Shown here in pieces: positions 10,068 through 27,743 of a stretch of 30,601 bases of DNA (the stretch's first letter is position 1; each line of letters opens with the position of its first letter). The stretch is from a virus (taxonomy: Duplodnaviria; Heunggongvirae; Uroviricota; Caudoviricetes), in IMG/VR virus record IMGVR_UViG_2531839450_000009; one strand, given 5' to 3'. The translations under genes were made by a program, and so were the position numbers. The notes under the pieces are model-generated. The model made no database searches. It was given only the letters and a program-made list of their open reading frames with translations, and was not told the origin of the DNA.

Positions 10068-10269
10068 TTTTCTTTTCAGCGTAACAGCGGTGCTTAACAG
10101 CACTTTGGGTACAGTTCCACGAATTTACGGGTATATCCCGTCATGCTGAAGGCGCTAATCACGCTGGAAGCCAGGGTTGTGCATCCCCTGTTACCGAATT
10201 GCAGCCAGGGCGCGGTGCGCCGAAAAGCATACGGAGGTGGAAGCCCTCGCCGGAGACGTACCCGGCAGG

Positions 10270-10311
10270 TGATGGTGTAGCTCAGCGGTTCGAGTCCGTT
10301 AATCGGCACCA
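10270..10311 (+). pseudogene. tRNA remnant: D-loop-like and T-arm plus 3' acceptor-ACCA, anticodon arm absent (tRNA-Thr-like 3' end)
   Basis: gtgtagctcag fused directly to ggttcgagtccgtt-aatcggc-a-cca. T-stem agcgg/ccgtt pairs with loop TTCGAGT. The 3' end atcggcacca resembles E. coli thrW as I recall. No complementary 5' acceptor strand and no anticodon stem-loop. Confidence 0.4.
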
Positions 10312-10312
10312 G

Positions 10313-11751: not shown

Positions 11752-11827
11752 GGCCCTTTAGCTCAGTGGTTAGAGCTGGCGACTCATAATCGCACGGTCA
11801 CCGGTTCAAGTCCGGTAGGGGCCACCA
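11752..11827 (+). tRNA. trnI: tRNA-Ile (anticodon CAU, lysidine type, AUA-decoding); tRNA-Met cannot be excluded from sequence alone
   Basis: Clean cloverleaf: acceptor GGCCCTT/AGGGGCC, D-arm GCTC-AGTGGTTA-GAGC, anticodon loop CTCATAA, T-arm ACCGG-TTCAAGT-CCGGT, encoded CCA. Near-identical to E. coli ileX as I recall. Confidence 0.85.
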
Positions 11828-12113: not shown

Positions 12114-13478
12114 ATGTCTGCATCCCCTCTTGAATCCATGCCAAATTCCCTTAGTGCAGAACAAGCTGTACTTGGTGGCTTAATGCTTGATAACTGCCGC
12201 TGGGATGAAGTTGCAGATCGTATAGTTGCTGATGATTTTTATACCAGTGCTCATCGTGAAATTTTCAGTGAGATGGAGAGGTTATTAAGTCATGGCAAAC
12301 CGATTGATTTGATAACACTTGCTGAAGCACTTGAACAGAACGGTAAATTAGAACGCGCCGGTGGTTTTGCGTACCTTGCGGAGATGTCAAAGAACACGCC
12401 CAGCGCGGCAAATATTTGTGCTTATGCGGATATCGTTCGTGAACGCGCGGTTGTTCGTGAAATGATTTCCGTCGCAAATGAAATAGCCGAAGCTGGATAT
12501 GCGCAGGATGGCAGGGGCAGCAATGAATTGCTGGATATGGCCGAGCGCCGCGTTTTTGAAATAGCTGAAAAACGACAAAAGAGCGGTAGTGGTCCAAAAG
12601 ATATCGCCAGCATTCTCGATGCAACGGTATCTCGCATAGAAGAGTTGTTTCAGCGACCACATGATGGTGTAACGGGGCTTGATACGGGATTTACCGATCT
12701 CAATAAGAAGACGGCAGGGCTTCAGCCGTCCGATCTCATCATTGTCGCCGCCCGCCCATCTATGGGGAAGACCACGTTTGCGATGAATCTCGTCGAAAAT
12801 GCCGCAGTCCGTAACTATAAGCCCGTATTGGTTTTTAGCCTTGAGATGCCGAGCCACCAGCTGATGATGCGCTCACTGGCTTCTCTTGCACGCGTTGATC
12901 AGACTCGTATTCGAACAGGGCAACTTAACGACGAGGATTGGGCGCGGGTTTCTGGCGCAATGGGGATTCTGTTGGACAAGCAAAATATTTTTATTGATGA
13001 CTCAAGCGCCCTGACACCTACAGAGCTTCGTTCCCGCGCTCGTCGTGTTTATAAAGAAAATGGTGGTTTGAGCATGATTATGATCGACTACCTGCAACTT
13101 ATGCGCGTCCCCGAGCTGCAAGATAACCGAACGCTGGAAATTGCCGAGATTTCTCGCTCACTGAAGGCTTTGGCGAAGGAATTACAAGTACCGGTGGTGG
13201 CATTGTCACAACTTAATCGTTCACTTGAACAGCGTGCGGACAAACGACCGGTAAATTCAGATTTACGTGAATCAGGAGCAATTGAGCAGGACGCAGACCT
13301 GATCATGTTTCTGTATCGCGACGAAGTTTATCACCCGGATAGCGAAATGAAGGGCATTGCCGAGGTGATTATCGGTAAGCAACGAAATGGCCCAATTGGC
13401 ACGGTGAGATTGGCTTTTAACGGCCAATACTCACGGTTTGATAACTATGCTGGTGCTGACTGGCAAGAGGATTATTGA
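12114..13478 (+). CDS. ban: DnaB-family replicative helicase (Ban)
   Basis: ORF track frame 12108..13478; preferred ATG 12114 with GGAG upstream. Walker A PSMGKTTFAMNL. Long stretches identical to E. coli DnaB as recalled (SIEAEQ-like N-terminus, GLQPSDLIIVAARPSMGKTT, LRESGAIEQDADLIMF). Confidence 0.9.
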   Translation: MSASPLESMPNSLSAEQAVLGGLMLDNCRWDEVADRIVADDFYTSAHREIFSEMERLLSHGKPIDLITLAEALEQNGKLERAGGFAYLAEMSKNTPSAANICAYADIVRERAVVREMISVANEIAEAGYAQDGRGSNELLDMAERRVFEIAEKRQKSGSGPKDIASILDATVSRIEELFQRPHDGVTGLDTGFTDLNKKTAGLQPSDLIIVAARPSMGKTTFAMNLVENAAVRNYKPVLVFSLEMPSHQLMMRSLASLARVDQTRIRTGQLNDEDWARVSGAMGILLDKQNIFIDDSSALTPTELRSRARRVYKENGGLSMIMIDYLQLMRVPELQDNRTLEIAEISRSLKALAKELQVPVVALSQLNRSLEQRADKRPVNSDLRESGAIEQDADLIMFLYRDEVYHPDSEMKGIAEVIIGKQRNGPIGTVRLAFNGQYSRFDNYAGADWQEDY

Positions 13479-14476
13479 TGCAATGGAATGAGGAAAAGCC
13501 GATGAACATCCTGATCATTGGGCGAAAATTTGAAGCTATCAGTGATGTGAAAACATATACGGAAATGTGGGCTTACAACCTGGCCTGCGCCTTTAGTGAG
13601 GCAGGGGTAACATTGCAATACCATCGTCCATATTCCCCCGGCGTCGAAAGCCCGGAGGATTATGTTGAAGCTGTGTTGACCGCTGCGACCTCGTGTTCTG
13701 CGAAAGCCATTTTAGCGCCAGGATTGCGGTATTTTACTACGGTGCCCAGGGAAATAGGCGTGCAACTGCGTCGTCGATTCACTGGATGGGTAGCCCAGGT
13801 ATACGACGGTTCTATGCTGGATTCGGCACCAGTCGATATTACTTTTACTGTCCGCGATGATACCTGGCGGTACCTGGATAATCCAGGCAGGTTAGAGCGT
13901 CATAATCGCTTTAACAAACATGTTGGATGGGCAGCGAATCAGGATCTGTTCCATCTGGAAACCAAAACAGACGATGTTCTGCGTATTTTTGTAGACCACG
14001 CTGCATTTGATGTTAGTGGGTTTGATCACTCCTTAAGTATCCTTATGAACCTTCAGCGTCTGACCGTTCCGTATGAGGCCAGAACGTTGACCGATGACGG
14101 ATTGATTACCATTGATCCGGGGAATATATCGGTAACCCCATACAGACGGACGCCGGTACCAGCAACCGAATTTGCAGCTGAATTGCGTAAGAGTGACGTG
14201 TTTATCGTTACGCATCCCGAAAGCCTTGGATTAACTGTACTTGAGGCGGCAATGTGCGGGGCGTTGGTATTAACGCCTCCCGATTGCCTTCCGCCAGATC
14301 GCCTGGCTTTGGTGAACCATATGGTTATCAAGTCGCGGATTGATTGGGATGAGGTTATTGCTCGCGTTGATCGCGTGAAAAATGCTGAAAAGGTCCAGTG
14401 TCACACCTGGTCGGCAATTGCGGAAAAGATGCTTGAGACGTTTATCACGCAGAAACCGTCGCGCGGTAACGGATAA
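13478..14476 (+). CDS. GT4-like glycosyltransferase (GT-B fold); occupies the position of P1 dbn
   Basis: ORF track frame; start overlaps the ban stop (or Met at 13502 with AGGA Shine-Dalgarno). C-terminal motif THPESLGLTVLEAAMCGALVLTP resembles the E-x7-E signature of GT4 retaining glycosyltransferases. Confidence 0.6.
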   Translation: MQWNEEKPMNILIIGRKFEAISDVKTYTEMWAYNLACAFSEAGVTLQYHRPYSPGVESPEDYVEAVLTAATSCSAKAILAPGLRYFTTVPREIGVQLRRRFTGWVAQVYDGSMLDSAPVDITFTVRDDTWRYLDNPGRLERHNRFNKHVGWAANQDLFHLETKTDDVLRIFVDHAAFDVSGFDHSLSILMNLQRLTVPYEARTLTDDGLITIDPGNISVTPYRRTPVPATEFAAELRKSDVFIVTHPESLGLTVLEAAMCGALVLTPPDCLPPDRLALVNHMVIKSRIDWDEVIARVDRVKNAEKVQCHTWSAIAEKMLETFITQKPSRGNG

Positions 14477-19274: not shown

Positions 19275-19420
19275 AGTCAGCCTGCCAGAAATAGATGATG
19301 GTGATTCTACCGCTAGTCATTTGTTGAATATTTAACTCAATAAAAGAAAATTATTAGTGCAATTTTGATTGTGAAATGTATCATTCTGCCCTTAAGTAGG
19401 TTCTTCACGAGGAAACAAAA

Positions 19421-19666
19421 TTGGCAGAACGTGTTGATGATGCAGAGCTGAGCATGAATCAGTTAGAAGCTCTCAAAGACATGGCCATCGATAACATCAG
19501 AAAGCAGGCACAGGTCGTGAGCCAGGTATTTACAGGGAAGTGTCGTTACTGCAATGAATCGATTGAATCAGGCATTTATTGTGACGCTGAATGTGCGCAA
19601 TGGCACAGGGAAGAGCAGGCCGCAAAACAGCGTAAATATGGCATGCGACCGGCAGGATTTGACTGA
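19421..19666 (+). CDS. small zinc-ribbon protein (81 aa)
   Basis: ORF track; TTG start with GAGGA Shine-Dalgarno. Cys cluster CRYC-x9-C-x3-C. Confidence 0.5.
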   Translation: MAERVDDAELSMNQLEALKDMAIDNIRKQAQVVSQVFTGKCRYCNESIESGIYCDAECAQWHREEQAAKQRKYGMRPAGFD

Positions 19667-19668
19667 TT

Positions 19669-20247
19669 ATGTTGCGCTTTACTGAGGAAGAGTTTCAGGC
19701 TTTTAGTGAGCGTCGAAATAAGGGGCGGTCCAGGCCAAAAACCAAAAAGGATCCATTCTTATCGCTTGCGCCGGTAAAAGAAGTTTCTCCACATGCGAAG
19801 GCACTTGCAGCACTTGCAAAGAACCCAGACCTGCGCGACGGAAATTGCGAGCACTTCGAGCAGGTTTTCATTTTTGATTACTTCGAACGCAAGCACCCTG
19901 ACATCTATGAGCTGTTGCATGCAACGCCTAACGGAGGGAAGCGTTCAAAAGCAACCGCCGGGAAAATGAAGGCTGAAGGGCAGAAAAAAGGTTATCCGGA
20001 CATGAGTCTCGATAAAGCATGCGGTATTTATCACGGCATGCGAATTGAGCTTAAAGAACCAAATGGTAAAGCCCCGACGAAAGAGCAGATCGCCTGGATG
20101 CGCAGGCTTAGAGAGGAAGGCTACTACGTTGTTCTTGCGTATGGTGCAGAACAAGCGATTACCGCCATCCTGGAATACATAAGTCTTAAAAAGGGTGAGG
20201 CTATTGAGCATGTATTGAACGGCGATAAGTGGTTGCATGCTGCTTAA
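19669..20247 (+). CDS. VRR-NUC domain protein (PD-(D/E)xK nuclease fold)
   Basis: ORF track, 192 aa. C-terminal GYPDMSL...GMRIELKEPNGKAPTKEQIAWMRRLREEGYYVVLAYGAEQA resembles the VRR-NUC signature. Confidence 0.6.
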   Translation: MLRFTEEEFQAFSERRNKGRSRPKTKKDPFLSLAPVKEVSPHAKALAALAKNPDLRDGNCEHFEQVFIFDYFERKHPDIYELLHATPNGGKRSKATAGKMKAEGQKKGYPDMSLDKACGIYHGMRIELKEPNGKAPTKEQIAWMRRLREEGYYVVLAYGAEQAITAILEYISLKKGEAIEHVLNGDKWLHAA

Positions 20248-20313
20248 AATAATAAATTAATTAGTGCATGTACGCTCTTTGTGGTAGTGCACTTTAACAT
20301 CGGGAGAATAATC

Positions 20314-20469
20314 GTGTCATCCAAGGTTAATTATGAGTCGCTGGCATCGGTCATGCCGCGTAATGAACAGGAAACAGATGCTGTAGTGGACCCTGTAATC
20401 GCTGAAATGAATGCTCGCCTGGAGGCTGAATTTGCAGCTGAGAATGAACATACCACCCAGGGCGACTAG
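20314..20469 (+). CDS. small acidic protein (51 aa)
   Basis: ORF track frame 20281..20469; preferred GTG start with GGGAGA Shine-Dalgarno. Confidence 0.3.
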   Translation: MSSKVNYESLASVMPRNEQETDAVVDPVIAEMNARLEAEFAAENEHTTQGD

Positions 20470-21073
20470 GACTGTTTTTTGTGTCGGTAGCGGTCCGTCA
20501 CTCACTCGTGAGGACTGTGCTGCTATAGAAAAAACTGGCTGTTCAATCATCGCGGTTAACAATTCCTGGCAGATGTTCGATGACATTTATGCCTTATACG
20601 CCGGTGATTTGTCATGGTGGAAGCAATACGGATCCACCATACCGGGAGGGAGATTCCGCAAAGTGACAGCCAACCTGGCGGCGGCGAAATCATTTTCGTT
20701 GGAGTACAGGCGATATTGTGGACCGGCGGAAGGGGTAAATAGCGGCGCGCAGGCTATCAGTCTGGCTGCTGAATCAGGGGCTGAAGTAGTGGTATTAGTC
20801 GGCTATGACTGTTCTCTGCAAAACGGCCTTCATTGGCATGGCGCGCACCCTCAAGCACTACGGAATCCAACGCAGGTGTCTATTTCAAAATGGCAACAGC
20901 AGTTCCTGGATACCCGCAAAAAACACGCAGATTTACATATTTTGAATGCAAGTAGGAGCAGTGCAATTCAATGTTTCCCAAGAATAAATTTAGAGGCAGT
21001 GATCGCGTTATTATCGTCGGCAGTGGCCCAAGCGCCGCAAACTTTGTTGCGCCGCGCGGAGTGCCGATTATAG
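20444..21073 (+). CDS. GSGPS-motif Rossmann-like protein, paralog 1 (DUF115/MptE-like resemblance, unverified)
   Basis: ORF track frame 20411..21073; preferred start MNIPP so that VGSGPSL lies near residue 14 as in paralog 2. Shares the (I/V)VGSGPS ... IIAVN block with the next gene. Confidence 0.5.
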   Translation: MNIPPRATRTVFCVGSGPSLTREDCAAIEKTGCSIIAVNNSWQMFDDIYALYAGDLSWWKQYGSTIPGGRFRKVTANLAAAKSFSLEYRRYCGPAEGVNSGAQAISLAAESGAEVVVLVGYDCSLQNGLHWHGAHPQALRNPTQVSISKWQQQFLDTRKKHADLHILNASRSSAIQCFPRINLEAVIALLSSAVAQAPQTLLRRAECRL

Positions 21074-21597
21074 CGGTCAATGGGGCCATCGACTGGCTGA
21101 ACCGCGCTTCTTATTTTTTCACACTTGATCCATCGCCAGACAATATGCGGCGCGTTGGTCGTGGCCGCCGTCGCCGTGGTGTTTGTTATTGCATGGCACT
21201 ACCCGATGTTAAAGAACGTGAAGTCAGAGACGGCGTTCTGTGCTTCCGTCGTGTGGCTGAACGTGGCATGGAGCCAAAAAATACGAATTCTCCCGAGTGG
21301 TGGGCGTGGCGCTGGTCCGCACATTTCGGACTTTGCGAAGATGAGAATGAAATTGCCAGCGGCAATAGTGCATATGGTGCTCTGAACCTGGCTTTCCATA
21401 TCGGATTCAAACATGTCGCCCTGGTGGGCGTTGACGCTACACAAGAACCACGCGTTCACTCCGGCGGCACGCCAAAAAATCTAAGTCACCTGCCTTTGTT
21501 ATTCCAGTCTGCGCGTGAACGGATTGACGTTGTTTCATGCGGGAAAATGGGAGGTATTCCGCAGATGACTCTTAAAGAATGGCTGAAGAATACATGA
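20971..21597 (+). CDS. GSGPS-motif Rossmann-like protein, paralog 2
   Basis: ORF track, 208 aa. [29 protein letters not shown]. Start overlaps the 3' end of paralog 1 by about 100 nt in another frame. Confidence 0.5.
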
Positions 21598-22271
21598 TGG
21601 CACCCACAATTTATCACCGTATCGACGGTACCAAATACAGGAATGTCTGGGTTGTTGGTGATCTGCATGGTTGCTACACCAGACTGATGTCCGAACTCCA
21701 TCGTGTGGATTTTGACCCGGCGCAGGATTTACTGATATCGGTCGGCGACCTTATCGATCGCGGTACTGAAAATGTCGAATGTCTGGAACTATTGCAGATG
21801 CCCTGGTTCAGGGCAGTGATGGGGAACCATGAGCGGCTGATGATTGATGCGTTAAGTCCAGATGGCAACGTGAATAACTGGCTAATGAATGGCGGACAAT
21901 GGTTCTTCATGCTGGACACTGATCAGGAAATATTAGCCTGGGCGCTGGTGGAGCTGGTAAAGCGTCTGCCCTATATCATTGAGTTGAACACCGGGCAAGA
22001 AACTATCGTTATAGCCCATGCCGACTATCCGGATAATGAATACCAATTCGGTAAGGAGGTACCGCTTTTCAACGTTGTCTGGGCGCGCGAGCGTATCAGT
22101 GATTCGATGGATGATATTGGTGGCGAAATTTCGGGCGCAGATCGTTTTATCTTTGGTCACACTCCGGTGAAAAGCCCGAAGACATTCTGGAATCAGCAGT
22201 ATATCGACACTGGTGCCGTATTTTGCGGAAACCTGACATTGATGAAAGTGAAAGGTGATGGTGCAGCATGA
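21594..22271 (+). CDS. ppp: Ser/Thr protein phosphatase, lambda-PPase / calcineurin-like metallophosphatase
   Basis: ORF track frame 21579..22271; likely start at the ATGATG overlapping the previous stop. Motifs GDLHG, GDLIDRG, GNHE. Very similar to lambda phosphatase as recalled ([49 protein letters not shown]). Confidence 0.82.
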
Positions 22272-22969
22272 AGATTGCTTTAGTTCTTCGCTCTGGTGGT
22301 GACTATAACGCTTCCGATGTGCAGTGGCTGGTTAATCAACTGCCAAAAGACTATGAAATTATTTGCCTGACAGACCTGAAGTGTTTACATGTACCTGGCG
22401 TCAAAGTTATCCCATTGATCAACCAGTGGCAAAAGTGCCGTGGCTGGTGGGCGAAAATCGAGTTGTTCCGACCGGATATAACCGATGATCTGTTCTATCT
22501 GGATTTGGACACGGTTATTGCCGGTGATATACGCCCAATCCTAGAGCATCCACCAACCAGCTTCACCATGCTTAGGGATTTTTACCATCCACAATATCGT
22601 GGCAGCGGTGCCCTGTGGATACCAAATAGTGTTAAAGCGCATATCTGGAGTTCATTCTGGCAAGATCCGGAAGGTTGGATTTCTCGTTGTGTCACTACTG
22701 AGTGTTGGGGTGACCAGGGGTTCTTACGAAAGGTTATGGGCGATGATACACCAGCATTTCAGGATCTGTATCCAGGATGGTTTGTAAGTTACAAGGCCGA
22801 TGTTGTGGAACCTGGTTCAAAATATGCGAGCGCGCGTTACTCCAGGGGGAATGGGGCATTACCAAAAGACTGCCGAATAATCTTTTTCCACGGCAAACCG
22901 CGACCTCGCGAAGTGTCAGAGGATTGGCTTCCCCTTATCAGCTCATTTTTTGAGCGAGAATCAGAATAA
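22268..22969 (+). CDS. hypothetical protein with DxD motif (possible GT-A-like nucleotide-sugar transferase)
   Basis: ORF track, 233 aa. [13 protein letters not shown] is DxD-like. Assignment weak. Confidence 0.4.
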
Positions 22970-22970
22970 T

Positions 22971-22987
22971 ATTGCTCTAATAATTCC
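22971..22987 (+). promoter_or_regulatory. C1 operator-like 17-mer, left copy of an inverted pair
   Basis: attgctctaataattcc begins right after the stop of the upstream gene. Confidence 0.5.
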
Positions 22988-22996
22988 ATATTTTTA

Positions 22997-23026
22997 AAAC
23001 GTGATGTACACTCATCACGTTTTTTA
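22997..23026. terminator. bidirectional intrinsic terminator
   Basis: aaaa-acgtgatg-tacact-catcacgt-tttttt: 8-bp stem between an A-run and a T-run. Confidence 0.6.
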
Positions 23027-23036
23027 TTAGAGCAAT
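23020..23036 (-). promoter_or_regulatory. C1 operator-like 17-mer, right copy (inverted orientation)
   Basis: Reverse complement reads attgctctaataaaaaa (first 13 positions match the consensus). Confidence 0.45.
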
Positions 23037-23050
23037 ATACAAGGTGCACT

Positions 23051-23269
23051 ATGTGGCCATTCCGACGGAAATATCACTACTGGCTGATCGCCTTTGTTAC
23101 GCCGACCGGCGGTATCAGGCATGTCATCACCAGGTATCGCAACAAGAGACTCACCTTAGCCAGAATTTTACAGGCTGCCATAGGTGAGGGACTGGATACA
23201 AATTGCGTAGTCCTTCCTCCTTCATACTTAGGAAAAATGACCGAAGCACAAGCTAATACGGAACTTTGA
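23051..23269 (+). CDS. hypothetical small protein (72 aa)
   Basis: ORF track; AAGGTG Shine-Dalgarno; first ORF after the operator pair; stop abuts the next gene. Confidence 0.4.
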   Translation: MWPFRRKYHYWLIAFVTPTGGIRHVITRYRNKRLTLARILQAAIGEGLDTNCVVLPPSYLGKMTEAQANTEL

Positions 23270-23270
23270 A

Positions 23271-24533
23271 ATGATCACTTCAGCACAAAACCAATCAATC
23301 GAAAATGTATCTATCCCTGACGTCCTGAATGCCGGTATCCCGGCCATTATCCAGAACATCCGGGCCGCGCAACGCCGCGTTAGTTGTGATGACCTCACAG
23401 CGCGTTTTTTTGATAATGCGGTTCAGTCAGCGGAGATGCTTCACGCACAGCTTATTGATGTTTATAACGCAGAAGCTGATAGCCATAACTCCCTGGTAGA
23501 TGCAGCTGAAAATATGCAGTTGGATCTCGGTCTGAAGGATAAAGAAATTGAAGAGCTTCAGCTGCAAATTGAACATTTGAAACGCCAGCAACAGGACGCG
23601 ATCGACGATGCGACGCATGACGCCAACCAGCGTGCTGATAATGCCGAACGTATAAGCATTGAGCTGGAAACAAAACTCAATGAAATGACCGCGATGGTTG
23701 AACTGCGGAACTCACAGATTTCAACGCTAAAATCTCAATATAAAGAGATCATGAAACTTGATCCTTTTAACCTTGAGAAACGCTATAACAAAGCTAAAAG
23801 CGAGCGACAGGAACTGCGTAAGCAGGTCGCCGACCTTAACCAACAGCTCAAAAAAACTATTAAAGATGCAAGCGAAGCGCGCGTGGCATTTGCTAATAAA
23901 AAAGCAGAGGTTACCGCGCTGGTTAATGAGAATGCCAAATTTGCGACGCTCAAGAAGGAAATGTATGGCATTACTGAGCGCCGTTTCCCTGCAAGCAAAC
24001 TTCATCCGACGTTAGGGCAAATATCCTTCTTCCCGCGCCTCCTGGCTTATGGGATCTCATCGCCTAAAGAGTTCAATAACGAGCGTCCTTATATCGTGTC
24101 TAAGCTGGACTTTGCTTATCAGTTCTGCTGCGACATGGGCTATGCCATTGATATCCGAATCAACGAATGGTTGATGCCAAACTTCCAGCCGTTGGCAATT
24201 TTCCGCGAGTTCCAGCCGGAAGGTTGGGTAGAGTTCTTCCATGAATTGATCTGTAAAGAGATGGAAAGCCGCCGCCCGGAATTGGTCCGTCGAGTTGAGT
24301 GGGCGCAAGAGGTTATGTTGGCAGATGCAGAGCTTCCGTTCGAACCGGAATTCATTGATGATCTGGCAACTAAAGGGCTGCATACCCTGTTTGATGTGGT
24401 TACCCGCCGTCATGAGCAGTTGGTTGTCGAATTGGGTTTAGAGGAAACTGCGGCAAGAAGACTTCTCGATGTTTGCTATGCACGTAGCGATGCATGGGAA
24501 AAAGAGAACGGCGGCACTATTTACGTTCGCTGA
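23271..24533 (+). CDS. hypothetical protein: N-terminal coiled-coil, C-terminal globular domain (420 aa)
   Basis: ORF track. Residues about 80-230 heptad-rich (EELQLQIEHLKRQQQD...). No domain recognised. Confidence 0.55.
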   Translation: MITSAQNQSIENVSIPDVLNAGIPAIIQNIRAAQRRVSCDDLTARFFDNAVQSAEMLHAQLIDVYNAEADSHNSLVDAAENMQLDLGLKDKEIEELQLQIEHLKRQQQDAIDDATHDANQRADNAERISIELETKLNEMTAMVELRNSQISTLKSQYKEIMKLDPFNLEKRYNKAKSERQELRKQVADLNQQLKKTIKDASEARVAFANKKAEVTALVNENAKFATLKKEMYGITERRFPASKLHPTLGQISFFPRLLAYGISSPKEFNNERPYIVSKLDFAYQFCCDMGYAIDIRINEWLMPNFQPLAIFREFQPEGWVEFFHELICKEMESRRPELVRRVEWAQEVMLADAELPFEPEFIDDLATKGLHTLFDVVTRRHEQLVVELGLEETAARRLLDVCYARSDAWEKENGGTIYVR

Positions 24534-24552
24534 TAGTTACAGTGTCACTTTT

Positions 24553-24587
24553 AATGCTGGTGGAGTGCTCCCACCAGCATTTTTTTC
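24553..24587 (+). terminator. intrinsic terminator (stem contains Chi octamers on both strands)
   Basis: aatgctggtgg-agtgctc-ccaccagcatt followed by a T-run. Confidence 0.6.
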
Positions 24588-24605
24588 GTCCAATGAGGAG
24601 GGCAT

Positions 24606-25112
24606 TTGAGTATTTTCAATAAACACGCACACCAGGAACGTCCGTACATCGTCATAGTAGATATTGATGGGACGATATCAGAGGCAACGGAAGACAGGCT
24701 GCATTTACTTCCACCACCTGGCAAAGGTGCATTAACAGAGCACTGGAACGAGTTTAACCTTGCCTGTGACACTGATGCTCCCATCACTCCAGTTATTGAT
24801 ATGGTGCGCCAGTTGTCCGGCATTTACACCCTCTGGTTTGTAACCGGGCGCTGTGAGATAGCCAGGGATAAAACACGAGCCTGGTTGCGTAAGCACGTAA
24901 CAAATGGGACTGAGCCTTTGCTATCTATGCGTCCTGCCACCGATGACAGAAATGACGGTCCAGCAAAGATTGATCTCCTGAAGAAAATTGGTCTAAGTAA
25001 AATTGCGTTCGCGCTGGAAGATAAGATTGACGTGGCGCGTGTTTTCAGGAGTCACGGCGTACTTACGTTAATGGTCAGGGAGTATGAAAACGCGCTTCTC
25101 CATCAACAATAA
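24606..25112 (+). CDS. HAD-superfamily phosphatase (phage Pnkp 3'-phosphatase-domain-like)
   Basis: ORF track; TTG start with GAGGAG Shine-Dalgarno. HAD motif I IVIVDIDGTI (DxDGT), later TGR and a D-rich motif. Confidence 0.6.
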   Translation: MSIFNKHAHQERPYIVIVDIDGTISEATEDRLHLLPPPGKGALTEHWNEFNLACDTDAPITPVIDMVRQLSGIYTLWFVTGRCEIARDKTRAWLRKHVTNGTEPLLSMRPATDDRNDGPAKIDLLKKIGLSKIAFALEDKIDVARVFRSHGVLTLMVREYENALLHQQ

Positions 25113-25128
25113 TTGCTCTAATAAATCT
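25112..25128 (+). promoter_or_regulatory. C1 operator-like 17-mer overlapping the stop of the HAD gene
   Basis: attgctctaataaatct matches 15-16 of 17 positions. Confidence 0.55.
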
Positions 25129-25210
25129 TGATTTTTAAAACAGAGAAAGTGAAAATAAAAACATGCCGCAAGGCGCGGCATGTATCCAATCAATCACAGG
25201 AGCTGAAAAT

Positions 25211-25297
25211 ATGAACACGGCATTCAAAATCATTATGGCCGCGATCTATTTCTGGCTGTTCTCTATCACTTTTGGCGGCATCGTCGCACATGGGTAA
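25211..25297 (+). CDS. tiny hydrophobic peptide (28 aa)
   Basis: ATG with AGGAG about 9 nt upstream. MNTAFKIIMAAIYFWLFSITFGGIVAHG. First ORF after the operator. Confidence 0.35.
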   Translation: MNTAFKIIMAAIYFWLFSITFGGIVAHG

Positions 25298-25306
25298 GGG
25301 GGATGC

Positions 25307-25894
25307 ATGAAAGGCGAAGTGAAAGAGCGCGGCATGATTTTTAACGATGAGATGGTCCGGGCAATTCTTGGCGGGAATAAAACACAGACTCGCAGGATTG
25401 TTGAAGAAAAATTCTATGGACGGGCAGTGGCCGCAGAGTTGCTTGCCAAGCATTGTCCATATGGTCAACCGGGCGATCGTATTTGGGTTCGCGAAACCTA
25501 CCGGGTACATGGCAAAGCGACGGACGTCGCAACGCTGGTTTATCGCGCAAGCGTGCGTAACTCCTGGACAGAACAAACGCACCGGGTTCCGGTCGAGGTT
25601 TGTAATAAACCAGTATCAGAAAAGTGGACGCCATCAATTCACATGCCGCGCTGGGCATCGCGCATTCTTCTGGAAATTACCAACGTGCGCGTTGAGCGGT
25701 TGAACGATATCAGCGAATGCGATGCAAGGGCTGAGGGCGCACCAACAGAATCGACCCTCATTGGCGATAAGCATTACCCAGGTTTCCGTAGCCTATGGAA
25801 ATCAATTTATGGCGAAGATAGTTGGAACGCTAATCCTTGGGTGTGGGTAATAGAGTTTGAGCGTATTCAGGGGGCAACCAGTGAGCGAAATTAA
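25307..25894 (+). CDS. ASCH/PUA-like domain protein
   Basis: ORF track; possible internal start MIFNDEMVRAILGGNKTQTRR at 25334, an N-terminal signature I associate with ASCH-domain phage proteins. Confidence 0.5.
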   Translation: MKGEVKERGMIFNDEMVRAILGGNKTQTRRIVEEKFYGRAVAAELLAKHCPYGQPGDRIWVRETYRVHGKATDVATLVYRASVRNSWTEQTHRVPVEVCNKPVSEKWTPSIHMPRWASRILLEITNVRVERLNDISECDARAEGAPTESTLIGDKHYPGFRSLWKSIYGEDSWNANPWVWVIEFERIQGATSERN

Positions 25895-26513
25895 TTACCA
25901 GGCACTGCGTGAGGCGGCGGAACGTGCAATTCCAGCAATGGAACGCCTGTTAATGTTGCCAGCTGATGATGATTTGTTAAGTGAACAGGAACTTAAAGAT
26001 TACGGTGTGGATATTGATGCGCTCAACGCCTTCAAATTTCTGGCCGGACCAGAAACCGTGCTGGCACTACTGGATGAACGGGAAAGAAACCAGCAATACA
26101 TCAAACGCCGTGACCAGGAGAACGAGGATATTGCGCTAACGGTAGGGAAGCTGCGCGTTGAGCTTGAAGCAGCAAAATCAAAACTCAACGAGCAGCGTGA
26201 ATATTACGAGGGAGTAATCGCGGATGGAAGTAAGCGCATTGCAGAACTGGAAGCACGGGAAATAAAACCAGCCAAAGGTGAGGTTCTTGTCGTTGTTTCT
26301 GGTTTTACTGGTTGCGGAAAAAGCGCCATTGCCGGGGAAATAGAAATCGCGATGAAGGCTATTGGTGTACCGGTTCAGTGGACTAATGGCGATGCGGAAA
26401 AGCGCATGACAGGAGCTGACTGGCTGACAGCGATTGAGATGTACAAACCAACAGTGCGCATCATGGAAGTTAATGTGCCACGCGCCGCTGGCATTCGCAT
26501 CAAAGGAGAGTGA
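25881..26513 (+). CDS. coiled-coil protein with C-terminal P-loop-like motif
   Basis: ORF track frame 25857..26513; preferred GTG start 25881 with AGGGGG Shine-Dalgarno. VVSGFTGCGKSAIAG resembles a Walker A box. Confidence 0.45.
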   Translation: MSEINYQALREAAERAIPAMERLLMLPADDDLLSEQELKDYGVDIDALNAFKFLAGPETVLALLDERERNQQYIKRRDQENEDIALTVGKLRVELEAAKSKLNEQREYYEGVIADGSKRIAELEAREIKPAKGEVLVVVSGFTGCGKSAIAGEIEIAMKAIGVPVQWTNGDAEKRMTGADWLTAIEMYKPTVRIMEVNVPRAAGIRIKGE

Positions 26514-26514
26514 T

Positions 26515-27030
26515 ATGGCGTTAACACACCGCGAACTCTGTCAGATTGCGTACAAGTTCCTTAAGCGCAACGGGTTCAAGGTTTGTTTTCATGACCGCTT
26601 TATAGCTGTAACCAGTACCGGAGAACAGCCAGATGCTATGGGATTCAGAAATTCAGCATCATGCCTGATAGAGGCGAAGTGTTCTCGTGCTGACTTGTTG
26701 GCAGATAGAAAAAAGCGTTTCCGTAAAAATCCCTCACTTGGCATGGGCGACTGGCGATTCTTTATTAGTGAGCCGGGAATTATTTCAGTTGAGGATTTAC
26801 CTCCCGGCTGGGGATTACTTCACGTTGTTAACGGAAGAGTACGGAAAGTACATGGATGGCCCAAGGGGAATTGCTGTTGGGGTAACCCTGAAGATAAACC
26901 TTTTATTGGGAATAAGCAGGTTGAATGCGATTACATGTTATCTGCATTAAGGCGCATGGAGTTGAGAGGGCACCTTAATGAAATATATGACGGTGTAATT
27001 GTTAATAAGAAAGAAGGAAACGCGGCATGA
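26515..27030 (+). CDS. PD-(D/E)xK-like nuclease-fold protein (putative)
   Basis: ORF track frame 26434..27030; preferred start MALTHREL with AGGAGA Shine-Dalgarno. PDAMGF ... IEAKCSRADL fits a D ... E-x-K catalytic core. Confidence 0.45.
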   Translation: MALTHRELCQIAYKFLKRNGFKVCFHDRFIAVTSTGEQPDAMGFRNSASCLIEAKCSRADLLADRKKRFRKNPSLGMGDWRFFISEPGIISVEDLPPGWGLLHVVNGRVRKVHGWPKGNCCWGNPEDKPFIGNKQVECDYMLSALRRMELRGHLNEIYDGVIVNKKEGNAA

Positions 27031-27743
27031 TCACTATTACCAAAGAGCGACTACTTACAATCAAGCAGTGGCGCGAAACATACGGACCGGGTAGCAACGT
27101 TGTACTGCCAGCAGAAGAAGCAGAAGAACTGGCACGAATTGCGCTGGCATCGCTGGAAGCAGATCCAGTTGCTTATATTTTCAAACATCCGGCCGGGAAA
27201 TTATTCTGGTCTTTAACGGATGAAAGCAATAAAGAGCAAGCGGACGTTATTCCTGTTTATGCTGCCGCGCCTGCGTCGGTTGTGCCGGATAATGCATCAG
27301 AGCCTCTTGCTTATGCTTACAAAGAGCTTACGCCTGAGATTATGCGCAACCATTTAGCTGTATTCGAGCGATATGGAATAGCCCCAAACGATAGCTCTAC
27401 CACAATTCAGGCACTGCGAATCGCGCTGGATGGCATAGAGCGGAGCGACGCCATGCTTCATGGTGCCGAACCTGTAAGCCAAACTTACAAGTTGAACCAG
27501 CTATCGGGCAACTCTCCGGCAACTCCGGATGGTTGGATAAGCTGTAGTGAGCGAATGCCGAATACCAAAACAGCCGTTCTTGTTGCCGTGGAGTTTGACA
27601 GGAAAGGTGACTGGCGAATGAAATGGGCTACTTACATCCCCGGGCATCCTGACGCTAATGATGGGTGGATAATTCCTGGTGCGTCGTGGAAACCGTCACA
27701 CTGGATGCCGCTACCAGAACCGCCGCAGGAGGTGAATCAATGA
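27027..27743 (+). CDS. hypothetical protein with DUF551-like C-terminus
   Basis: ORF track, 238 aa. C-terminal GWISCSERMP...WMPLPEPP resembles DUF551 of lambdoid accessory genes. Confidence 0.5.
   Translation: MITITKERLLTIKQWRETYGPGSNVVLPAEEAEELARIALASLEADPVAYIFKHPAGKLFWSLTDESNKEQADVIPVYAAAPASVVPDNASEPLAYAYKELTPEIMRNHLAVFERYGIAPNDSSTTIQALRIALDGIERSDAMLHGAEPVSQTYKLNQLSGNSPATPDGWISCSERMPNTKTAVLVAVEFDRKGDWRMKWATYIPGHPDANDGWIIPGASWKPSHWMPLPEPPQEVNQ

Follow-up and report, generated by a model that had tools for sequence, protein, structure and literature searches.

The closest described relatives of the DNA analyzed here, a window of 30,601 nucleotides from IMG/VR virus record IMGVR_UViG_2531839450_000009, are phage P1 and the P1-like phage-plasmids. 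A survey of 54 P1-like elements found eight hypervariable regions, one of them holding pmgT and the genes that follow it, and the other genes, located outside these regions, were called stable. The block of genes from pmgL to pap lies outside all eight regions, and within it pmgR and pmgS show some of the highest conservation. This part of the genome is already known: it belongs to the published and annotated P1 sequence, and its genes have been deleted singly by others. In fact, Gonzales et al. (2022) made in-frame single deletions in P1 that include pmgL, pmgM, pmgN, pmgP, pmgQ, pmgS, pmgT, pmgU, pmgV, ppp, and pap, and 24 of their 29 mutants plate normally, with parental restriction on hosts carrying the type I systems EcoA, EcoB, and EcoK. 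Furthermore, a genome-wide CRISPR interference (CRISPRi) screen of P1 found the whole block to be non-essential save pmgN, and it did not detect pmgR, whose deletion shows it to be essential.

The interval of interest, positions 19421-27030 of the window, had been described in the original prediction as a group of accessory operons in which nuclease-fold and phosphatase enzymes are concentrated, possibly as a toolkit for nucleic-acid repair or against host defences. The comparison with P1 points to another explanation. The interval is probably the pmgL-pap segment of a P1-type phage-plasmid followed by the first cassettes of the hypervariable pmgT region, and not one system.

The interval as part of a P1-like phage-plasmid

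The window is a P1/P7-like phage-plasmid (genus Punavirus). Megablast of the interval against phage genomes gave identities of 99.0% to JL22 (over the full length), 97.9% to P7, and 98.7% to P1 (over the first 80%), and the left 19.4 kb of the window, with par, repA, dmt, ban, and tail and baseplate genes, is 98% identical to P1 coordinates 59082-78601. Using the names of the annotated records, positions 19421-25112 correspond to pmgL, pmgM, pmgN, pmgO, pmgP, ppp, pmgQ, pmgR, pmgS, and pap. From PmgL to Pap, the ten encoded proteins have 94-100% identity with their P1 counterparts, and therefore the results obtained in P1 apply directly to this element. Moreover, the gene content, gene order, C1 operators, and late promoter of this block are the same here as in P1 (GenBank AF234172), P7 (AF503408), and JL22 (ON018986). 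After pap begins a region that varies among the annotated records of P1, P7, JL22, RCS47, and SJ46, and positions 25112-27030 open one such hypervariable region of the P1-like elements. Compared with the pmgT-humD region of P1, this element carries different cassettes 3' of pap and lacks full-length pmgT and pmgU; compared with JL22, it lacks the two small open reading frames (ORFs) and the adenine methyltransferase found 3' of pap in that phage.

Concerning transcription, the interval consists of four C1-repressed lytic-cycle units and a gene, pap, behind a terminator, and it is not one operon set. The window contains seven C1 operator sites with three or fewer mismatches to the consensus, versus 0.13 expected, and four of them bound these units. 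An operator precedes each of pmgL, pmgN, and the variable operon, and two inverted ones precede pmgR. The late promoter LPpmgL (19314-19332, plus strand) is placed according to the P1 annotation, back to back with LP26; the whole intergenic region upstream of pmgL is identical to that of P1, where this late promoter and two sigma-70 promoters are annotated. Operator O26/Op82 (19347-19363, minus strand), annotated in P1 and P7 and with two mismatches to the consensus, overlaps the predicted sigma-70 promoters of pmgL. Oppp (Op83; 20254-20270, minus strand), located 5' of the pmgN-pmgQ operon, presents four mismatches, so it stands outside the count of seven and was placed from the P1/P7 annotation together with the sequence. 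The boundary between pmgQ and pmgR is formed by the inverted operators OpmgRa and OpmgRb, found in the operator scan and in the P1 annotation, which surround a hairpin with a T-run (22971-23036). A strong hairpin resembling an intrinsic terminator, with a perfect 11-bp stem and a T-run, occupies the gap between pmgS and pap (24553-24581, plus strand). Finally, OpmgT (Op88; 25112-25128, plus strand; one mismatch; annotated in P1 and P7) controls the operon of the variable cassette. Since a C1 operator precedes every unit, a defence role that protects the lysogen was rejected.

In the proposed mechanism, C1 would keep the four units silent in the lysogen, and they would be switched on in lytic growth. 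Unit 1 (pmgL-pmgM), which could also be read from the late promoter, would provide the nuclease PmgM, which may debranch replicating or recombining concatemers before headful packaging, a task in which host resolvases could substitute for it. The core of Unit 2 (pmgN-pmgO-pmgP-ppp-pmgQ) would be a glycosyltransferase module acting on virion proteins. Unit 3 would supply the essential head-completion protein PmgR and the coiled-coil protein PmgS, and after its terminator comes the gene of a stand-alone HAD phosphatase, probably with low expression. Unit 4 would be made of interchangeable cassettes (ASCH-like, Ea22-like, MmcB-like, and DUF551 genes), exchanged with the exo-xis regions of lambdoid prophages.

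Regarding the idea of one toolkit, no evidence linking the genes was found. They are divided among four units controlled by C1 operators, a terminator stands before pap, and two evolutionary modules are present: the conserved P1 core and an exo-xis-type cassette with about 97% DNA identity to Stx/lambdoid phages. The concentration of nuclease and phosphatase folds had been reached by selecting genes, as the seven genes chosen cover 3786 of the 7610 bases, and pmgN, pmgO, pmgP, pmgQ, pmgR, and pmgS, which include genes for glycosyltransferase-like, head-completion, and coiled-coil proteins, had been omitted. On the contrary, the description of the genes as accessory agrees with the P1 data, in which deletion or CRISPRi of pmgL, pmgM, pmgO, pmgP, ppp, pmgQ, pmgS, pap, pmgT, pmgU, and pmgV leaves plaque formation intact. 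It also agrees with a cryo-electron microscopy (cryo-EM) study that assigned "almost all" virion proteins, whose main text names no protein of this block.

Glycosyltransferase-like genes and the readings of the interval

Three genes of Unit 2 resemble glycosyltransferases. The pmgO gene (20411-21073, plus strand, as are all the genes described below) encodes an MptE-like or sialyltransferase-like putative glycosyltransferase that matches PHROG 4603 (E = 4e-74) and, weakly, the Pfam MptE-like family. Its distant paralogue pmgP (20971-21597) is also MptE-like (Pfam E = 3e-4; PHROG 2111 and PHROG 4603). The product of pmgQ (22268-22969) is a GT-A-like putative glycosyltransferase that matches PHROG 1962, labelled "glycosyltransferase", and presents a DxD motif (DLDT, residues 79-82) whose DLD residues are invariant in 32 homologues.

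PmgQ homologues with 31-43% identity are found in unrelated prophages, either directly 3' of terminase-portal-protease-capsid genes or among head-tail connector genes, and a tblastn search with the P1 proteins against five of these loci revealed a PmgO homologue directly upstream in three. A search with a PmgQ profile yielded 38 non-P1 viral contigs; a PmgO-like ORF is present in 25 of them, often adjacent to the PmgQ homologue or a few kb away, and none carries Ppp, PmgL, PmgM, PmgR, PmgS, or Pap. The surroundings of the pmgO-pmgQ pair were scanned with Pfam in 18 of these contigs, which gave 126 ORFs on the same strand with 130 residues or more; they belong mostly to portal (10), major capsid (11), prohead protease, terminase, HK97-gp10-like, and tail-tube families, and S-adenosylmethionine (SAM) methyltransferases, GT2 glycosyltransferases, and radical-SAM enzymes also appear. 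Furthermore, in the Pseudomonas phages D3 and PAJU2 a PmgO homologue is surrounded by genes for the head, the adaptor, and head closure, and a methyltransferase and the tail terminator gene lie downstream of it, and in the Caulobacter phage CcrColossus the PmgO homologue comes after a tail protein and before two more glycosyltransferases and a methyltransferase. The protein of about 270 residues that adjoins the PmgO homologue in D3 and PAJU2 was also considered, and it is not a detectable homologue of PmgQ or PmgP. In a Pseudomonas prophage (locus L091, 4931-6010) a protein of 359 residues combines PmgO-like and SAM methyltransferase domains directly upstream of the PmgQ homologue; this fusion links the PmgO family to sugar-modifying chemistry.

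In the window, the glycosyltransferase module adjoins pmgR (23051-23269), a head-completion gene whose product is identical to that of P1 (72/72 residues). P1 heads and tails stay unjoined when pmgR is deleted, and it is the sole essential gene of the interval (Gonzales et al. 2022). The original prediction had named as a refuting condition that the genes are known particle-maturation factors; this applies to pmgR, in the middle of the interval, and it may apply to the glycosyltransferase genes as well.

The recurrence of the pmgO-pmgQ pair in head-neck modules, often beside methyltransferases, suggests virion glycosylation. A comparable case has been described in mycobacteriophages, where, according to Freeman et al. 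(2023; cited in PMC11600133), capsid and tail-tube proteins are modified by an O-methyltransferase together with three glycosyltransferases encoded in tandem, and growth does not depend on these enzymes. Both arrangements have in common tandem and dispensable glycosyltransferase genes, and the pmgO and pmgQ homologues are located in structural modules, often with methyltransferases. Nevertheless, the P1 module lacks an adjacent methyltransferase, and the likeness described here is one of gene arrangement. By this analogy, we tentatively propose that pmgO, pmgP, and pmgQ could be a virion-glycosylation module and that P1, D3-like, and other Gram-negative phages could put sugars on capsid or tail proteins.

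Several observations weigh against this proposal and the wider explanation to which it belongs. P1 virion glycosylation has not been reported, and a cryo-EM paper from 2026 mentions no glycans. The P1 module, besides its lack of a methyltransferase, is outside the main head operon. One pmgQ homologue is found in an ordinary chromosomal context and one pmgO homologue among DNA-metabolism genes. The Pfam scores of PmgO and PmgP are below threshold and PmgQ has no Pfam match, and PDB sequence searches gave nothing usable for PmgO, PmgP, or PmgS and a marginal GT8-like match for PmgQ. The junction-resolving role predicted for PmgM is drawn from homology. Moreover, early expression under a repressor and a site beside a hypervariable slot would also be expected of anti-defence genes.

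If virion glycosylation by pmgO-pmgQ were true, this modification would extend from actinobacteriophages to widely used Gram-negative phages. It would bear on phage immunogenicity and on P1-based delivery vectors, and it would assign a role to genes that for two decades have carried the label "putative morphogenetic" in P1, the standard transducing phage of E. coli.

Two observations concern the surroundings of these genes. In a diverged relative (L142), the gene order from pmgL to pmgQ is kept, with identities of 50% for PmgL, 75% for PmgM, 64% for PmgO, 67% for Ppp, and 73% for PmgQ; therefore, the arrangement with ppp inside the glycosyltransferase module predates the close P1 group. It seems that ppp is embedded in this module in the P1 lineage only. 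Outside the interval, the dbn gene (13475-14476) is annotated in P1 as a "possible glycosyltransferase" and, if this is correct, the element may encode a fourth one.

The first alternative is the anti-defence role of the original prediction, in which host immunity would be neutralised early in infection by at least one protein of a set formed by PmgM, Ppp, Pap, the ASCH-like protein, and the MmcB-like nuclease, for example by dephosphorylating kinase-based signals, by removing the 3'-phosphates left by defence nucleases, or by degrading defence nucleic acids. We consider it unlikely. The genes are dispensable in the laboratory host and all the units are C1-repressed, hence expressed on lytic induction, as would suit this role, but they are divided among units that are regulated and evolve separately. 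Unit 4 is located in a hypervariable slot, which in JL22 holds an orphan N6-adenine methyltransferase; however, nothing was found that ties the genes, by function or by homology, to an anti-defence protein already characterised, the library scanned being PADLOC, which has models for defence and not anti-defence and gave nothing but coiled-coil noise from PmgS. A mycobacteriophage metallophosphoesterase with a counter-defence role exists, although that enzyme is not a lambda-type protein phosphatase. In addition, P1 deletions of these genes plate unchanged on EcoA, EcoB, and EcoK hosts, a result that covers type I restriction only. Positive support for the anti-defence role was not found in these data, and one nuclease or phosphatase gene may counter a defence system other than type I restriction.

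A second alternative gives pmgO, pmgP, and pmgQ a target in the envelope: late in infection they would alter the host lipopolysaccharide, which is the P1 receptor, blocking adsorption to debris or excluding other phages. This is rather improbable. Three glycosyltransferase-like genes under lytic control, a family-9 (heptosyltransferase-type) glycosyltransferase in some of the homologous cassettes, and one chromosomal homologue are compatible with it; nevertheless, the pair recurs inside head-neck-tail structural modules and not beside lysis or conversion genes, and neither an annotation nor any library named PmgO, PmgP, or PmgQ as a membrane protein, a comparison made without transmembrane prediction.

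Nuclease, phosphatase, and other genes of the conserved core

The seven ORFs of the original prediction all exist on the plus strand, at or near the places assigned to them, and five of the fold calls held: zinc finger, VRR-NUC, lambda-type phosphatase, HAD/PNKP-type phosphatase, and PD-(D/E)xK, the last one being MmcB-like by predicted structure. The other two were less solid, as the ASCH call is weak and the P-loop is just a Walker-A-like pattern.

The pmgL gene (19421-19666) encodes an 81-residue four-Cys zinc-finger protein, TraR/DksA-like, that is identical to P1 PmgL in all 81 residues. It presents CxxC and CxxxC motifs and matches PHROG 54, "DksA-like zinc-finger" (E = 1.6e-12), in agreement with the zinc ribbon proposed for it, and the DksA-like zinc finger encoded in the lambdoid exo-xis region is not similar to it. 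Its neighbour pmgM (19669-20247) encodes a predicted VRR-NUC nuclease of the Holliday-junction-resolvase type. Residues 77-180 of PmgM match psNUC (PDB 4QBL; E = 3.5e-17) with the catalytic residues kept, and the motifs GYPD (108-111) and IELK (126-129; E127-x-K129) align with those of psNUC. The Pfam VRR-NUC model (PF08774) gave 21.3 bits, just under its cut-off of 23.8, a near miss that is outweighed by the PDB match, and PmgM also matches PHROG 5702, "Holliday junction resolvase". The stand-alone bacterial and viral VRR-NUC proteins psNUC, stNUC, and saNUC are dimeric Holliday-junction resolvases, and psNUC cleaves four-way junctions; PmgM differs from psNUC in an extra N-terminal region of about 75 residues. 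The DNA-processing role suggested for PmgM at first is thus reasonable.

The ppp gene (21579-22271) encodes a lambda-type Ser/Thr protein phosphatase of the NinI/PPP family. Ppp aligns over its full length with lambda NinI (PDB 1G5B; E = 1.5e-94) and presents all the metal-binding motifs (GDxHG, GDxxDRG, GNHE, and the C-terminal His), as well as a Pfam Metallophos match of 59.3 bits; the NCBIfam scan gave just near misses to the PrpA/PrpB equivalogs. The genes differ in their location, that of Ppp being within a myovirus glycosyltransferase operon and that of lambda in the nin region.

The last gene of the core, pap (24606-25112), encodes a stand-alone HAD phosphatase of the PNKP type with 168 residues. 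The Pnkp-like phosphatase call was borne out by a Pfam HAD_PNKP (PF25109) score of 43.8 bits versus a cut-off of 27.6 and by the DIDGT motif at residues 19-23, and Pap also matches PHROG 415 (E = 1e-55). The Pfam scan found no kinase domain in its 168 residues. The top PDB matches were de novo TIM barrels, and they were rejected as repeat artefacts. Pap shares with the phosphatase domain of T4 Pnkp the HAD fold family and the DxDGT nucleophile motif; its fourth HAD motif is ED and, in contrast to T4 Pnkp, it has neither a kinase domain nor any ligase partner found, and its gene is behind a terminator. The start codon of pap is TTG, after a strong AGGAGG ribosome-binding site, and the P1 features examined show neither the terminator nor a pap promoter there.

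A T4-like repair of RNA, in which the 3'-phosphatase Pap and the ASCH-like protein would heal tRNAs cut by anticodon nucleases, is very improbable even though Pap matches the phosphatase domain of polynucleotide kinase-phosphatase with the catalytic DxDGT present and ASCH-like features are weakly present, as the sole Walker-A pattern in the interval is that of the Ea22-like protein, no RNA ligase or polynucleotide kinase partner appeared in the scanned window ORFs, the annotated P1/P7/JL22 regions examined, or the P1 gene functions given in the main text of the genome-wide essentiality paper (a search short of a whole-genome scan), pap is behind a strong terminator and in a different unit from the ASCH-like gene, its deletion has no plating phenotype, and two of the three tRNA genes of P1 (tRNA-Asn and tRNA-Thr) are lost in this element. 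At about 10268-10312 of the window, the neighbouring P1 genes for tRNA-Asn (trnA) and tRNA-Thr (trnT) are replaced by one hybrid remnant, in which the 5' part of trnA runs directly into the 3' end of trnT and about 109 bases have been lost. The sole tRNA that ARAGORN and Rfam detected in the window is tRNA-Ile(CAT), at 11752-11827.

Two more genes complete the core. The pmgN gene (20314-20469) encodes a protein of 51 residues, all identical to P1, which belongs to PHROG 2350, of unknown function. The plating of P1 falls about 70-fold under CRISPRi against pmgN, while the in-frame deletion of this gene is harmless; silencing pmgO, which follows it, changes nothing, and therefore simple polarity does not explain the defect. 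The pmgS gene (23271-24533) encodes a coiled-coil protein of 420 residues, of unknown function and highly conserved in P1-like elements, for which Pfam, NCBIfam, PADLOC, and PDB searches gave weak matches of the coiled-coil type alone.

The variable cassette 3' of pap

The first large gene of the variable operon (25307-25894) encodes the ASCH-like protein, whose family also includes the first 232 residues of P1 PmgT, to which it is 47% identical, and therefore this family is covered by the pmgT deletion. Concerning the ASCH/PUA-like call, the protein has no Pfam match, and sub-threshold matches to ASCH (PF04266) appear in 20 of 40 distant relatives, the best with E = 0.0013. Its N-terminal GxKTQTRR resembles the ASCH signature, whereas hhalign against a single annotated ASCH protein gave a negligible probability. 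The family is large, with 44,406 representative clusters matching at the 50% identity level (33,849 at E ≤ 1e-10), and it has no Pfam model; its conserved motifs are MVRAILxGxKTQTRR, GDRLWVRE, PSIHMPRWASR, and NPWVWV. Sequence searches of the PDB with the protein gave no usable match, a profile of diverse relatives found none there either, and the AlphaFold model, made from a shallow alignment in which all the relatives are more than 80% identical, presents a pLDDT (predicted local distance difference test) of 48.

The next protein, encoded at 25857-26513, had been called a coiled-coil protein with a P-loop-like motif. It is a member of the Ead/Ea22 family (Pfam Ead_Ea22, 129.5 bits), and what stands of that call is the pattern GFTGCGKS in the C-terminal region. 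This pattern fits GxxxxGK[ST] and is located in a region of about 85 residues with no Pfam match and no clear Walker B. Ea22 promotes lysogeny in lambda and Stx phages.

The MmcB-like gene (26515-27030) encodes a protein with a predicted PD-(D/E)xK nuclease fold, whose homologue in a lambdoid phage lies within the exo-xis region. The PD-(D/E)xK call agrees with the structural model, which presents a restriction-endonuclease-like fold similar to MmcB, and the putative catalytic residues D40, E53, and K55 are invariant in 41 sequences. The start of this ORF, previously set at 26434, was corrected to 26515, where homologues and public annotations start. None of the 41 family members matches PF06319, and 16 of them give weak Hjc matches. 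MmcB/DUF1052 (PF06319; structure 3dnx) is an SOS-induced endonuclease of the PD-(D/E)xK type that has been associated with the repair of crosslinks in Caulobacter, whereas the family of the window is a phage family from lambdoid, Vi1-like, and Vibrio phages. Describing the P7 Upf89.0 family as a predicted MmcB-like PD-(D/E)xK nuclease and PmgM as a probable VRR-NUC protein gives them sharper labels and adds little else. In some Salmonella and E. coli prophages (P0129, P0207, P0208, and P0220) the MmcB-like domain is fused behind an Ead/Ea22 N-terminal domain, so the neighbouring genes of the window may act together or exchange C-terminal modules.

The exo-xis-type cassette continues past the interval with a DUF551 (EaA-like) gene (27027-27743; Pfam DUF551, 76.9 bits). 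Positions 25869-27736, which span the Ea22-like, MmcB-like, and DUF551 genes, present about 97% DNA identity to Stx-converting lambdoid phages, and in the lambdoid phage phi330 the homologues of these three genes are annotated between exo and xis. In contrast to the lambdoid exo-xis region, the cassette is here controlled by a P1 C1 operator and belongs to a prophage kept as a plasmid, without integration.

Furthermore, between the ASCH-like and the Ea22-like genes, two or three additional genes are present in JL22 and P7 and missing from the window, where the junction (25870-25885) falls in a short overlap. One of the JL22 extra genes (L001, 10461-11591 region) encodes an N6/N4 DNA methyltransferase (Pfam, 102.8 bits), that is, the orphan adenine methyltransferase. 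The leader of the variable operon (25161-25297) contains a GC-rich hairpin of 10 bp and then, just 5' of the ASCH-like gene, a small hydrophobic ORF of 28-44 residues, which is annotated as "membrane protein" in SJ46.

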